DNA from: Escherichia phage EC121
Length of the DNA: 64,000 bases
Strand: one strand, 5' to 3'
Sequence record: NC_054909.1
Part shown: one piece after another, positions 2,448 through 18,207 of the stretch
How positions within the stretch are numbered: position 1 is the stretch's first letter
Layout of the letters: each line of letters starts with the position of its first letter
Program-made: the position numbers and the translations under genes
The notes under the pieces: generated by a model
The model's input: only the letters and a program-made list of their open reading frames with translations
Told to the model about the DNA's origin: nothing
Database searches by the model: none

Positions 2448-4264
2448 TACTGGCTCATCCATTCTTTACGAAGGTCAGCATTATCCCCCATGAGCATTTC
2501 AAAAAGCTCTTTCCAATTCTCAGGAAGTTTAACAACATCATATACTGGGTTTTGAATCATCTCACGATATTCAGATTTTTCCAAAGAGCCAAGTCCCTTA
2601 ATATAACGGATGCTATGTTTAGGTAGAGCATCTTTGGCACTCTCATATTCAGCGACCGTATAAAACCATTCTTGTTTTTTACCGACCTGAGCGATGATTA
2701 CGGGAGTTTTGACGAAGCGAATTCTTCCTTGTTCAAACAGTTCTGGCCAATTACTAAAAAATCCGAGCAGAGAAGGATAAATGCTTCCTAGACCATCGTG
2801 GTCAGCATCAGTCATAATAGCAATATTATGATAATTCAAGTTTTCAGCCTTTTCACCAAGAACTAATCCAGTGATTGCGCAAATATCAAACAGTTCTTTG
2901 TTTTTAAGCATATCAGCATATGACATACCCCAACTGTTGAGAACTTTACCACGTAATGGATAACCGCCATGAAGTTCTTTATCACGAACATCAATAAGAT
3001 ATCCGATAGCAGAATCACCCTCAGTCAAGAAAAGAGTAGTGTCAGCGTCTTTACCGCAAAGATTCGCTTTAATATGTTTATGAACCTTAGCTTTAGAAGC
3101 CTTTTTAGCTGCTTTAGTTTCTGCTGCCTTTTCTGCCGCCAATTTACGAGCCAAAGCAGCTTCAATAATTGGCATTAAAATTGCTTCATTATTTAAAATA
3201 GCACGTGAAATCTTTTTAGCATCAAGCTGAATATGACTACGAATTTCACCAAATGGAGAAGTCAAACGCTCTTTAGTCTGAGAATCAAATCGCATGTTTT
3301 TCATATCACGAACAAACATAACGATAGTCAAACATTCTTTAACCCGTGCTTTAGTTACATCAATTTTGAACTTACGTTTGATTTGTGGAATAAGGTCTTC
3401 ACAAATATCATCCATAACGCAGTCAATGTGATGGCCGCCATTCTTAGTATGAATGTTATTAACGTATGTTAATTGACGAAAACCATCCAGTGAACGACCA
3501 ATCGCAATAGAACAATTTTCTTGTTCTTGAACGATAGCATGCTCATCATATTGGCGTGCGTATTTCTTAAAATTGCCCTGAACCTTTTTACCATTAAAGG
3601 TAAATTGAATATCAGGATAAACTACTGCAAGTGTCTGGAGACGATCTAGTGTAATGTCAAGATAAACCTGAGATAGCTCATTAGTTTCAAATGACATAAA
3701 ATCAGGAATGAAAGTAACACGAGTTCCTTTCCATTTTCCAGGAATAGTTTCCCATGATTTATTTTCCATGCCATTTGAACAACGAACTACAATATTATTT
3801 TGACCATCGCCAGTTTCACCGACAAACATCACAGAAAAAATGTTAGTTAAACTAGAACCAACACCGTTCATACCGCCAGTGACGCGTTCTTTATCATCAC
3901 CGAAGTTACCACCTGCTTTTGGAATAGTCCAGGCGGCAACAGGACCAGGAATTTCTTCGCCAGTAGGTGTTTTAACCATCGCTTGTGGAATACCACGACC
4001 GTTATCTTCAACAGTTACTTGATTGTTTTTAATAGTAACATTAATTTTATTCGCGAATTTAAACTTAGTACGAATACCTTCATCTACCGAGTTATCGATA
4101 ATTTCATCAATAAGCTTAACAAGACCAGGTACATACTGAACACTTTCCCATTTACCAAACAGAAAGCGCTCATGCATTTCATTAGCGGAAGAGCCAATGT
4201 ACATGCCGCTACGCTTTTTGATATGTTCAATATCGCTCAGAATTTTAATTTCATTCTTAATCAT
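2447..4264 (-). CDS. 39: DNA topoisomerase II large subunit, uninterrupted gp39 (T4 gene 39 plus gene 60 as one ORF)
   Basis: 605 aa from ATG at 4264 (track start 4267 is GTG); GyrB-like ATPase N-terminus; C-terminal 160 aa matches recalled T4 gp60 with no bypass gap or mobA insertion. Confidence 0.92.
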   Translation of the reverse strand: MIKNEIKILSDIEHIKKRSGMYIGSSANEMHERFLFGKWESVQYVPGLVKLIDEIIDNSVDEGIRTKFKFANKINVTIKNNQVTVEDNGRGIPQAMVKTPTGEEIPGPVAAWTIPKAGGNFGDDKERVTGGMNGVGSSLTNIFSVMFVGETGDGQNNIVVRCSNGMENKSWETIPGKWKGTRVTFIPDFMSFETNELSQVYLDITLDRLQTLAVVYPDIQFTFNGKKVQGNFKKYARQYDEHAIVQEQENCSIAIGRSLDGFRQLTYVNNIHTKNGGHHIDCVMDDICEDLIPQIKRKFKIDVTKARVKECLTIVMFVRDMKNMRFDSQTKERLTSPFGEIRSHIQLDAKKISRAILNNEAILMPIIEAALARKLAAEKAAETKAAKKASKAKVHKHIKANLCGKDADTTLFLTEGDSAIGYLIDVRDKELHGGYPLRGKVLNSWGMSYADMLKNKELFDICAITGLVLGEKAENLNYHNIAIMTDADHDGLGSIYPSLLGFFSNWPELFEQGRIRFVKTPVIIAQVGKKQEWFYTVAEYESAKDALPKHSIRYIKGLGSLEKSEYREMIQNPVYDVVKLPENWKELFEMLMGDNADLRKEWMSQ

Positions 4265-14985: not shown

Positions 14986-15231
14986 TTAACCACCAGTTAC
15001 TTTCCACAAATCTTCGTTTGCAGTAATCCATGCATCACGTTGATTTTCTTCGTATACAGTAGTATATGCTGCTTTTTCTGAAGGGAATGTCTGGTAATGA
15101 GCGCCAGAAATTTTGTGAACGTCAGAATAAAGAGGGAAAGCTACAGAAATTTCCTTTCCTTCAATTTTCTTATTTCCGTCTAATTTCTGCTCAAATGTTT
15201 TAATATTAACATAACCGCGAGTACTAGCCAT
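14986..15231 (-). CDS. soc: small outer capsid protein Soc
   Basis: 81-codon ORF, sequence matches recalled T4 Soc (MASTRGYVNIKTFEQKLDGNKKIEGKE...); late promoter upstream. Confidence 0.95.
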   Translation of the reverse strand: MASTRGYVNIKTFEQKLDGNKKIEGKEISVAFPLYSDVHKISGAHYQTFPSEKAAYTTVYEENQRDAWITANEDLWKVTGG

Positions 15232-15262
15232 GTAATTCTCCTTTTATTTAAATTACATGACT

Positions 15263-15270
15263 ATTTATAA
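15263..15270 (-). promoter_or_regulatory. late promoter TATAAATA
   Basis: Plus strand tatttata is the reverse complement of TATAAATA, about 30 nt upstream of the soc ATG with GGAGAA RBS. Confidence 0.6.
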
Positions 15271-15303
15271 TAAATTCTCACAGCTTTTAAGCCGTCGTTT
15301 ATA

Positions 15304-15822
15304 TTAATAACCTCGGTCTTGACGAGCGAAGTTTTCAGCATTTTTCAGATAATAAAGTTTAAAGATTTCTTCAGCCGTAAGACCGAGACCTTGGAACATG
15401 TTCAGAACGAAATGAAGAATATCAATCATTTCGAATTTAATTTCCAACTGGTCTTGTGGAGATAAATCAGTAATCAGAGTTTCACGACGTTCACCGTGTT
15501 GCGACTTCCAAGGCTTCCATACAGCAGACGCATCTTTTTCGCCATTGCTCATACCACCAAGAGAAGTCAGAAGTTCGCGGAATTCATCATCAATATAATC
15601 TTTCTGATTACGCAGCCAATCAACAACTTCACCTGCAGTAGCCAAATCATCAGGATGACGGTTATATTCAGGTTTATCTTTAGCTAAACGAACTTGCAGA
15701 GATTTCTGCATATCAAGCATAACCTGCAGCGGGTCTTTTTCATCACCGAGAATATCCCAGTATTCATTTTGAGCTTTATCAGCGCCTTCAATCAGTTGAC
15801 TACATTCGTTAAAGTATGCCAT
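15304..15822 (-). CDS. 56: dCTPase/dUTPase gp56
   Basis: 172 aa from ATG at 15822 (track over-extends with a hydrophobic N-terminus); matches recalled T4 gp56; GAAAGGA RBS. Confidence 0.9.
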   Translation of the reverse strand: MAYFNECSQLIEGADKAQNEYWDILGDEKDPLQVMLDMQKSLQVRLAKDKPEYNRHPDDLATAGEVVDWLRNQKDYIDDEFRELLTSLGGMSNGEKDASAVWKPWKSQHGERRETLITDLSPQDQLEIKFEMIDILHFVLNMFQGLGLTAEEIFKLYYLKNAENFARQDRGY

Positions 15823-15855
15823 TATTTTTCCTTTCAATTCATGGGTTAGTAGATT

Positions 15856-15880
15856 AATTATACAATAAATATATAAAGCA
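15856..15880 (-). promoter_or_regulatory. candidate MotA-dependent middle promoter for gene 56
   Basis: Minus strand TTGCTTTA (MotA box), 11 nt, TATAAT. Confidence 0.5.
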
Positions 15881-15893
15881 ATAAGGAGGATAT

Positions 15894-16094
15894 ATGGTAC
15901 AAAAATTAATGGCACTTGTTAATGCCATAAAAGGTAATAAAAAACGTATAGCTTTTACTATTTCTGCTATGGTAGGAATTTTACTCTGGAATTTTGTTTT
16001 ATCACCAATTGCTATTGCTCATGGTGTTAATATTCCAGTAATTACTCTTGATACATTCGTAGATTTAGCATTTGCTTTAGTTGGGTTAATTTAA
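15894..16094 (+). CDS. small hydrophobic protein encoded on the plus strand
   Basis: 66-aa ORF with strong SD AAGGAGGA 4 nt before the ATG; two predicted TM segments; sits in a 270-nt gap with no minus-strand ORF. Confidence 0.45.
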   Translation: MVQKLMALVNAIKGNKKRIAFTISAMVGILLWNFVLSPIAIAHGVNIPVITLDTFVDLAFALVGLI

Positions 16095-17119
16095 ATCTTA
16101 GCATATTTAGATAGCCGCATTTTAGCCATCAACCCTTGAGCAATATTATTTTTCATATATTCCATAATTTGTTCAGGGGTTGCACCTTCCTTTCTAATCA
16201 TATCATTAACATCTTTTGATTTCCAGGGAGATTTGTCCCAAAACATAACCCTTTCTCCTGCATCAACTAATTTAGTCATTCGTTTAATAGTGTCAGGGTG
16301 ACGAGGTTCATTATCTAAAACCCATACACGTCTATCTTTAAATGGAACAATTTCTAGGTCTAATTGACCACCCGTAATAGCTATACCATTTTCAATAAAA
16401 AGTGAATCTATAGGTCCTTCTAGAACATATACATCACCATCTTTGACTCGTTCAACTCCATAGATTTTTGTTGCCTCAGGATAAGCTTTGATGGTGATAT
16501 ATTTTTGAGGAGCATCTTTCTTTAATGCACGTCCTTGAAAAGACTCGGCTTTTCCGTTAGCATTATAAATTGGAATAACAAGACGAGGCTCGGGCATTTC
16601 CTTTTTATATGTTCCTGGCGCTATACTATTAACTAATTTAGGCCATTCGGTTGTAAACCAAAGATATTTCCATTTATCCTTTGGAATACAACGAGCTTTT
16701 ACATATTTTATAATTGGATGGTCTTCCGCCAGTTTATCTAGTCTAATGCATGACGGAAGAGATTTAATTATTTTCTTCTCAGGTTGTTTAGAAAGTTCTT
16801 TAGGTTTTTCTACTGGACGACTTTTACCTTTTTCTTTTCTTATTTCAAAGATATACTCACGATATAAATCAGGTTCAAACTCCTTTAAATATATTCCGAT
16901 TGGTGCATGATAGTTACAGTTATAACAATGAATATTTCCTTCATTATTATCGCCATAATACCATCCACGGGCTTTATTTTGATCGGTTTTTGAATCTCCA
17001 CAAACAGGACATCTAAACCGTAATTTAAAAGTTGAACTATTATTTACTTGTGCGAATTTAGGTAAATGAGCTAATGCACGGTATGCAAACTCATTATCAA
17101 TCCAAGGTATTGATGACAT
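16091..17119 (-). CDS. 61: DNA primase gp61
   Basis: 342 aa; zinc ribbon CPVCGDS...CYNC and TOPRIM region; matches recalled T4 gp61. Confidence 0.96.
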   Translation of the reverse strand: MSSIPWIDNEFAYRALAHLPKFAQVNNSSTFKLRFRCPVCGDSKTDQNKARGWYYGDNNEGNIHCYNCNYHAPIGIYLKEFEPDLYREYIFEIRKEKGKSRPVEKPKELSKQPEKKIIKSLPSCIRLDKLAEDHPIIKYVKARCIPKDKWKYLWFTTEWPKLVNSIAPGTYKKEMPEPRLVIPIYNANGKAESFQGRALKKDAPQKYITIKAYPEATKIYGVERVKDGDVYVLEGPIDSLFIENGIAITGGQLDLEIVPFKDRRVWVLDNEPRHPDTIKRMTKLVDAGERVMFWDKSPWKSKDVNDMIRKEGATPEQIMEYMKNNIAQGLMAKMRLSKYAKI

Positions 17120-17121
17120 TT

Positions 17122-17286
17122 TTACTCTTCTTTTTCTTTAGATTCCTCTTTTTTCTTTTTAGGAATCTGTTCAGGACCTTTATTTACTACAGCGCCTGAC
17201 GTTGTTCCAGTGGAGATATTTTCAGGATTACCACCTGAATCTCCAGCTACCATATCTTCTTTGATAAATTCTTTATATGTTTTCAT
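17122..17286 (-). CDS. small Lys/Glu-rich protein
   Basis: 54-aa ORF not in the track; 2-nt spacers to both neighbours. Confidence 0.4.
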   Translation of the reverse strand: MKTYKEFIKEDMVAGDSGGNPENISTGTTSGAVVNKGPEQIPKKKKEESKEKEE

Positions 17287-17287
17287 A

Positions 17288-17914
17288 TTAACCTCTATTC
17301 ATAAAAGCATTAAAAATTTGGTCATCAATAGAAACATTTACTTTAGACTGTTTTTCTGATGGTAATTCATATCCACATATTACAATTTTGTGATCAATAT
17401 CAAAATACACAGAAGCAATATGATTAATGATGTTTTCAGTAAAGTCTAAATCAACATCAATATCTTTTTGACCACAGCCCAAAGGATAAATAATGCGAGT
17501 AATTCGATTATCTTTAACAAAGATTCCACCGATATACTCTGTGCTGCGTTTAAAGTCTACACGCCGACGAAATGAAAAATATTCAGGCTCTTTATGAGCT
17601 CTGCTCATAGGACACAACGAGTAACTAGAATAAGAGATGTCAAATCCTACGCCTTCGATATGAGCCAAAGTGTCATGATTAAACCAATTATAATCGTACG
17701 CCAAATCCATTAGATTATAATATGTAAAGGGCACCGGATTAACATCATTAGTCACAAGCATGTAATTAGCAACTGCTATAATTTCATTGTTTTTAACGAA
17801 TACAAACCGTGATTGATGTGAATGACCTGGACCCGCGTTTTCACGATTAATGATATAACACTGGGCACCTTTATATTTGTATGTATCTTTGCACTTGTGC
17901 ATTTGATAGAGCAT
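17288..17914 (-). CDS. hypothetical protein (61.x region)
   Basis: 208-aa ORF between spackle and primase. Confidence 0.55.
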   Translation of the reverse strand: MLYQMHKCKDTYKYKGAQCYIINRENAGPGHSHQSRFVFVKNNEIIAVANYMLVTNDVNPVPFTYYNLMDLAYDYNWFNHDTLAHIEGVGFDISYSSYSLCPMSRAHKEPEYFSFRRRVDFKRSTEYIGGIFVKDNRITRIIYPLGCGQKDIDVDLDFTENIINHIASVYFDIDHKIVICGYELPSEKQSKVNVSIDDQIFNAFMNRG

Positions 17915-18207
17915 TATTCACCTACCACTTCAGCGATGATATTTTTATTATTAAAGTTTTTATCGCAATACAGAACATAATTATACTGCATTACACCACC
18001 AGACTTAAGCTGTTTTTGCACTTCAGCTTTCATTTCAGGACGGTCACGCTCAACGATATTCATAATATCTGCTTCAATTTGAGTTTCAACTTCAGTCTGA
18101 TCTGCAGTCATAGACCACTCGCACAAATCTTTGTCATAACCCGCCATAGCAGGCTGAGCAGCGCAAGAAGATAAAGCAAAAATTGCAGCAAAGATAAATT
18201 TTTTCAT
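17914..18207 (-). CDS. sp: spackle periplasmic protein Sp (superinfection exclusion, lysozyme inhibitor)
   Basis: 97 aa with signal peptide; near-identical to recalled T4 Sp. Confidence 0.9.
   Translation of the reverse strand: MKKFIFAAIFALSSCAAQPAMAGYDKDLCEWSMTADQTEVETQIEADIMNIVERDRPEMKAEVQKQLKSGGVMQYNYVLYCDKNFNNKNIIAEVVGE

Follow-up and report, generated by a model that had tools for sequence, protein, structure and literature searches.

In bacteriophage T4, the gene for the DNA methyltransferase Dam (dam; T4 16846..17625) lies between gene 56 and gene 61. In the description of this locus (record X01416, Macdonald and Mosig), gene 56 is served by a MotA-dependent promoter, annotated as the mot-box/−10 promoter P(M)16.53. 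Late genes of T4 use a different signal: 32 of 50 listed late promoters carry the perfect TATAAATA box, A at −13 is the commonest variant (9 of 50 sites), and late transcripts of either polarity are possible (Geiduschek and Kassavetis, PMC2988020). The same neighbourhood holds the members of PHROG 2024 (ime09, RB68, ST0 gp087, VR25_031 and hundreds more in Tequatrovirus, Mosigvirus and Gaprivervirus), annotated as 'hypothetical protein' next to the primase gene, with gene 56 or dam on the other side.

Here we compare these systems with a stretch of 64,000 nucleotides (64 kb; hereafter the window) from Escherichia phage EC121 (NC_054909.1), which belongs to a Tequatrovirus (T4-type phage) and matches T4-type phages at 96–99% identity. 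The window has the flanks of the T4 locus, that is, gene 56 with its MotA-type promoter on one side and a small open reading frame (ORF) with gene 61 on the other, and lacks the dam segment of about 880 bp. With a probability of about 0.85, we read the small ORF as a genuine conserved gene, present alongside dam in T4, and attribute the lack of dam here to cassette variation.

Layout of the locus

The best local match of the region is Shigella phage Sfk20, at 99.0% identity over 2 kb. The features of the locus, in window coordinates, are as follows.

14986..15231, minus strand: soc, the first gene in the order around the small ORF
15304..15822, minus strand: gene 56 (dCTPase/dUTPase), 172 aa, N-terminus MAYFNEC..., from the ORF list, T4 gp56 homology, and the position and annotation shared with relatives
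15857..15881, minus strand: gene 56 middle promoter, with MotA box TTGCTTTA (15881..15874), an 11-nt spacer and −10 TATAAT (15862..15857)
15863..15882, no strand: empty insertion slot, from pairwise T4 alignment, comparison of upstream sequences and annotations
15864..15871, plus strand: late-promoter-like box AATAAATA, ending 22 nt before the ATG of the small ORF
15883..15889, plus strand: Shine–Dalgarno (SD) box AAGGAGG, 4 nt before the ATG, read from the sequence
15894..16094, plus strand: small ORF, 66 aa, hydrophobic, PHROG 2024, from the ORF list and family match
15899..15928, minus strand: terminator-like hairpin ATGGCATTAACAAGTGCCAT followed by TAATTTTTGT, from a pattern scan, inside codons 6–12 of the small ORF
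16091..17119, minus strand: gene 61 (DNA primase), 342 aa, from the ORF list
Beyond gene 61, in order: 61.1, 61.2, sp, 61.4, dmd and gene 41

The start of gene 56 (15822) and the small ORF are separated by 71 nt. At its other end, the small ORF converges on gene 61: both genes terminate in Ile-stop, and their stops overlap by 4 nt inside the palindrome ATTTAAAT (16088..16095). The same 4-nt convergent overlap is found in phages ST0, VR25 and Moon. In one metagenomic lineage (L028), the junction between the ORF and the primase gene is instead a 9-nt gap with a GC-rich hairpin that resembles a bidirectional terminator.

What the first-pass annotation had read in this gap from the letters was borne out: a hydrophobic plus-strand ORF of 66 aa, a strong SD box, a late-promoter-like ATAAATA (within AATAAATA) upstream of the ORF, a divergent gene 56 middle promoter comparable to P(M)16.53, and no minus-strand ORF. 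On the last point, the ORF scan of the window found no stand-alone minus-strand ORF of at least 30 aa between genes 56 and 61; the sole open minus-strand frame there prolongs gene 56 in frame as far as 15915 with a GTG start, which T4 homology does not support as the real one. Because spurious antisense ORFs of 50–97 aa are common near the small ORF, its length alone is not significant. On the far side of gene 56, the window lacks the homing endonuclease gene segF, which in T4 separates soc from gene 56; soc and gene 56 are here only 72 nt apart (15232..15303).

A conserved gene beside the primase gene

The product of the small ORF matches the PHROG 2024 profile (unknown function) with an E value of 5.4e-31, residues 2–66 aligning to positions 1–65 of 65. 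It is a member of this family with no differences, has the same position and orientation relative to primase, and is 100% identical to the proteins of ime09, SH-2 and ECO95. The gene is already catalogued as a hypothetical protein in hundreds of genomes. Two scans of IMG/VR had yielded 5–7 loci only, and GenBank phage records were used instead. By tblastn, the ORF occurs in 691 of these records, in 685 of them as one piece at ≥80% coverage; about 500 are at ≥90% identity and 190 near 50% identity, and those sampled among the 190 are Mosigvirus and Gaprivervirus.

T4 itself carries the small ORF on its plus strand (T4 17738..17938), and the encoded protein is identical to the window copy at 62 of 66 residues. 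In NC_000866, 309 nt separate the start codon of dam from the stop of gene 61, a seemingly "empty" gap that holds the ORF; both the AAGGAGG box and the 4-nt overlap of the stops are as in the window. T2 likewise carries it. In NC_000866, AF158101, X01416 and the RefSeq record of T2 the ORF is unannotated, which accounts for the mention of dam alone at this place of T4 in the first-pass annotation.

Among the matches listed, the ORF abuts the primase gene in nearly every annotated record, and the two are convergent in Tequatro-, Mosig-, Gapriver- and Moonviruses. A dam-less order of gene 56, ORF (+) and primase (−) is found in Mosigvirus ST0, Gaprivervirus VR25 and two metagenomic lineages. VR25 has two tandem paralogs between gene 56 and the primase gene (locus L018, 2495..2692 and 2701..2901, plus strand), with the core LWN..P.A...G..LP.V in common. 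The homolog in Citrobacter phage Moon (Moonvirus), of 65 aa and 26% identity, retains W-N-[FY]-x-[IV]-x-P-x-A-x-A-x-G and the overlap with the primase gene; the pairing of ORF (+) with primase (−) is kept there, but three other genes lie between gene 56 and the ORF. With or without dam, the small ORF accompanies the 3′ end of the primase gene in no fewer than four genera.

Coding signatures and overlapping elements

Conservation at such a site could also have causes other than a protein. The ORF might be untranslated and its sequence kept by the gene 61 terminator, by the gene 56/oriA promoter region, or by a late antisense RNA to the primase mRNA. The minus-strand hairpin inside codons 6–12, which follows gene 61 and precedes the gene 56 promoter, fits the first of these, and a terminator is annotated at the equivalent place in Yersinia phage fPS-2. 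A scan of window 15200..16700 found no plus-strand terminator after the small ORF; a late transcript would therefore read on into gene 61 as antisense RNA, and both T4 strands are transcribed at some sites (PMC2988020). Literature searches, which covered T4 ribosome profiling, small proteins, unannotated ORFs and maps of transcription start sites, turned up neither transcripts nor ribosome footprints nor peptides of the ORF for any phage, and this negative result stands on the same side.

The pattern of substitution points the other way. Changes at third codon positions predominate, variable columns among Tequatrovirus copies being distributed 7/2/13 over the three positions. By pairwise Nei–Gojobori estimates, dN/dS is 0.12–0.3 overall, 0.12–0.29 within Tequatrovirus and 0.13 within Mosigvirus; for the two best pairs within a genus, the synonymous excess is significant in binomial tests (P of 6e-4 and 8e-5). 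Between genera, dS is saturated and dN is about 0.4–0.5. Indels in the ORF are in frame, and VR25 has its tandem paralog. Across homologs with 26–55% amino-acid identity, the frame, start codon and SD box are kept whereas the nucleotides, including the hairpin, are not. Because the hairpin is not conserved in Mosigvirus and the small protein is, overlapping regulatory elements cannot explain the conservation of the ORF. An antisense role could coexist with coding and cannot explain the coding features. An untranslated ORF is accordingly improbable, and we retain the reading of a translated, conserved gene.

Two copies deviate from the intact form. The T6 RefSeq copy has ATT in place of ATG (locus L021, ~1604), where all other copies have ATG, and the copy of phage T4_ev240 is frameshifted by a 1-nt deletion in an A-run (locus L003, ~2250). 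These may be sequencing errors or a sign of dispensability in laboratory stocks.

Expression signals upstream of the small ORF

Every homologous locus has the SD box AAGGAGG or a close variant of it (Mosigvirus, TAAGGAG; Moonvirus, AGGAGG). Further upstream, the AATAAATA box sits within the spacer of the opposite-strand gene 56 promoter, whose architecture matches that of P(M)16.53 and which has a predicted counterpart, likewise a middle promoter, at the corresponding place in fPS-2. The AATAAATA box falls in the A(−13) variant class of late promoters, and its strand and its distance from the ATG agree with those of the TATAAATA-type boxes of T4 late genes, which precede the start codon by about 20–35 nt.

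The core motif ATAAATA is about sevenfold depleted in this early-gene region (64 kb, both strands), with 6 occurrences observed against 40.1 ± 5.8 expected; for TATAAATA and AATAAATA, the expected counts in the window are 10.8 and 15.6, and the observed ones 2 and 3. The depletion indicates that the motif is counter-selected. Unlike the length of the ORF, the promoter box is significant: the chance that one of six occurrences would fall directly upstream of the small ORF on the correct strand is about 1.4e-3. Three of the other five stand 20–32 nt upstream of start codons on the same strand. The six sites are as follows.

15262, minus strand: precedes soc
15865, plus strand: upstream of the small ORF
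17486, plus strand: antisense, inside a minus-strand gene
45503, minus strand: precedes what we take to be gene 49, from its product (MLLTGKLYKEEKQKF...)
57853, minus strand: precedes an ORF at ~57826
62340, plus strand: antisense, inside a minus-strand gene

Of the seven lineages examined, five have a NATAAATA box that ends 16–22 nt upstream of the ATG, in these forms.

Dam-less Tequatrovirus: AATAAATA
T4 type with dam: GATAAATA
Mosigvirus: AATAAATA
Gaprivervirus: CATAAATA
P0030 metagenomic lineage: AATAAATA

The other two lineages (L028 and Moon) lack an exact ATAAATA and have near matches only. The perfect TATAAATA is found in none of the promoter boxes of the ORF, the first base being A, G or C. 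The box is kept although the flanking sequence is non-homologous between lineage groups: in T4 it is on the far side of dam, and in Mosigvirus it is flanked by the MotA box and the SD box.

From these motifs, late transcription of the small ORF is probable. In the mechanism that we propose, gp55-RNA polymerase would transcribe the ORF from the AATAAATA box late in infection, translation would then start efficiently from AAGGAGG, and the late transcript would also extend antisense into gene 61.

The predicted protein

The first-pass annotation had called the product a small membrane protein and proposed a prediction of its topology; hydropathy analysis and AlphaFold2 agree with that description. 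The protein (GRAVY 1.25; five Lys/Arg in residues 1–18) is predicted to begin with an amphipathic helix rich in Lys and Arg, followed by one clear transmembrane helix (about residues 16–42) and a short C-terminal helix (52–63). The 19-residue hydropathy peak is 2.0, over residues 19–42, and the AlphaFold2 model (pLDDT 76.6) has helices at 2–12, 16–42 and 52–63. In the predicted layout, the conserved core LWNF-x-L-x-P-x-A-x-A-H-G lies on the long transmembrane helix. The simplest reading of the model is an N-in single-pass inner-membrane protein whose short C-terminal helix is periplasmic or re-entrant. The product of the proposed late transcript would then be a 66-aa inner-membrane protein that keeps its positively charged N terminus on the cytoplasmic side, crosses the membrane by one long helix and ends in a short C-terminal one.

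Searches for a function returned relatives of the protein itself. Pfam and NCBIfam scans gave no match, a word-indexed search of 5.8 billion proteins gave no functional homolog, and an exhaustive profile search of 1.84 billion representatives gave six clusters, all of them relatives. Foldseek against the viral structures of BFVD likewise found relatives only, including a probable Karamvirus homolog at 27% identity. The T6 RefSeq record calls the product a 'putative head morphogenesis protein'; this name was disregarded, since the transferred names in that record are plainly unreliable (its gp56, for example, is noted as similar to 'ferredoxin').

In size, hydrophobicity and predicted inner-membrane location, the protein resembles Imm, Sp, RI, Ac and small phage holins only as a general type; it has no detectable sequence or fold relationship to any of them, and its genomic context differs. 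The likeness raises the question of whether the product is a holin. In favour of this, the protein is small and hydrophobic, with one or two membrane segments (hydropathy and AlphaFold2 each predict no fewer than one transmembrane domain), its gene has a putative late promoter, and the homolog in vB_EcoM_OE5505 is named 'Holin' in UniProt, a label that looks like an automated or size-based guess. Holin families in Pfam, NCBIfam and PHROGs gave no match, however, and Foldseek matches to holins had E values above 5. Nor does the gene lie in a lysis cassette: no endolysin or spanin gene is adjacent, its neighbours in Tequatro-, Mosig- and Gapriverviruses are the dCTPase and primase genes, and primase abuts it in Moonvirus too. 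A T-type holin is, moreover, already annotated elsewhere in Sfk20. We regard a holin as very unlikely.

For the conserved membrane-protein gene that we favour, an accessory late function in the envelope (for example, in lysis timing, lysis inhibition or superinfection exclusion) is a low-confidence guess, and the gene may be dispensable in the laboratory.

An accessory slot, empty in this phage

In the alignment with T4, the T4-specific segment spans about T4 16846..17724 (~880 bp) and consists of the dam coding sequence and 99 nt upstream of it. It stops just before the ribosome-binding site of the small ORF, which makes dam and the ORF neighbours rather than alternatives. At the junction, the spacer of the gene 56 promoter in the window differs in sequence from that of T4 and has the late-promoter box on its opposite strand.

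The contiguous dam-less junction is found in about 292 records, including T6, RB68 and RB27, and T4-type Dam at ≥90% identity in about 182; the dam-less state is the commoner of the two. In about 155–164 records, T2 and wild isolates among them, the slot holds a restriction endonuclease (REase)-like ORF together with dam; T4, with dam alone, is the unusual case. The REase-like gene beside dam in most dam-positive relatives suggests that T4 dam descends from a restriction-modification-type module. In fPS-2, the slot is occupied by an HNH/NUMOD3 homing endonuclease gene (locus L020, 1780..2430, minus strand). The junction between the gene 56 promoter and the small ORF is a recurrent insertion slot for accessory cassettes, and it is empty in this phage.

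The empty slot is plausibly ancestral, because Mosig- and Gapriverviruses have the empty layout too. An origin of the dam-less phages by deletion from T4 between ATTAATT repeats was considered and rejected: the window junction does not match the predicted product, and the dam-less layout of Mosig- and Gapriverviruses also speaks against it. Insertion into an ancestrally empty slot, or recombinational exchange, is tentatively favoured over deletion.

The first-pass annotation had suggested that a small membrane-protein gene was swapped in for dam at the 56–61 locus; the window does lack dam, the plus-strand ORF fills most of the gap and the T4 reference annotation shows only dam there, but this reading is wrong, because T4 and T2 carry both genes, with the ORF in the same position relative to gene 61, the T4-specific segment stops short of the ribosome-binding site of the ORF, and the ORF is also present in genera without dam at the locus. 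On our reading of a conserved gene beside a variable slot, the absence of dam is a separate matter, the slot holding only the gene 56 middle promoter and the putative late promoter of the ORF, back to back.

Elsewhere around gene 56, Klebsiella phage PKO111 (Jiaodavirus) has DNA methyltransferase ORFs, annotated or recognisable, shortly upstream of the gene (locus L033, 2842..4090, minus strand), one of them with an NPPF motif. The gene 56 neighbourhood may host methylase genes in other genera too.

Absence of Dam

That T4 carries dam between genes 56 and 61 had been stated correctly in the first-pass annotation, and its statement that the locus and the rest of the window hold no Dam-like sequence stands: tblastn queries with T4 Dam, a second Dam-like protein and a sequence for Escherichia coli Dam found no homolog in the window (best E values 0.29–0.56). 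The motif [DNS]PP[YFW] occurs in the window only in stop-to-stop frames of 103 and 107 codons, against 259 aa for T4 Dam. Nothing in the window qualifies as Dam or another alpha-group N6-adenine DNA methyltransferase by homology to T4 Dam together with FxGxG and DPPY motifs.

For the rest of the genome we used Sfk20 as a proxy, the closest complete genome at the locus, which covers 91.6% of the window at 96% identity. The entire Sfk20 genome (164,878 bp) has no Dam-like sequence at E ≤ 0.1. The proposed full-genome search for Dam was thus carried out on the phage's own DNA for the 64 kb and, beyond them, through Sfk20 only. By these sequence comparisons, the phage lineage probably encodes no Dam.

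A second, divergent methyltransferase of the Dam family is encoded between nrdA and nrdB in T4_ev240 (locus L016, 2992..3783, plus strand), a phage without dam at the 56–61 locus. It is 33% identical to T4 Dam, has the motif FIDPPYL and matches TIGR00571 with an E value of 1.6e-26; this second methylase was found in nine phage records only. A compensating Dam at that site was sought in Sfk20 and is absent, nrdA and nrdB being 51 nt apart with no gene between them.

Implications

Whether a T-even phage has dam or lacks it is a matter of ordinary accessory-gene variation and carries little weight for discovery, and the small ORF is an ordinary, catalogued conserved hypothetical gene beside an empty accessory slot. 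What the comparison brings out is a gap in the reference annotations of T4 and T2, from which a well-conserved and probably late gene for a membrane protein (T4 17738..17938) is missing. Because of this gap, omics studies and knockout screens that use these annotations never test it. It is possible, and no better than a tentative proposal, that all parts of the picture hold jointly: an overlooked functional late gene of T4 and T2, with an envelope phenotype and a late transcript that is also antisense to the primase mRNA. If so, a gene overlooked in T4 and T2 for decades and conserved in at least four genera of Tevenvirinae would have a measurable envelope phenotype.

Accessory content also varies elsewhere in the window. 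The homolog of gene 61.2 (208 aa, 17298..17912), shared by the window and T4, has no match in Sfk20, and neither do eight further window segments of 160–880 bp, which illustrates the mosaic accessory content of such genomes.
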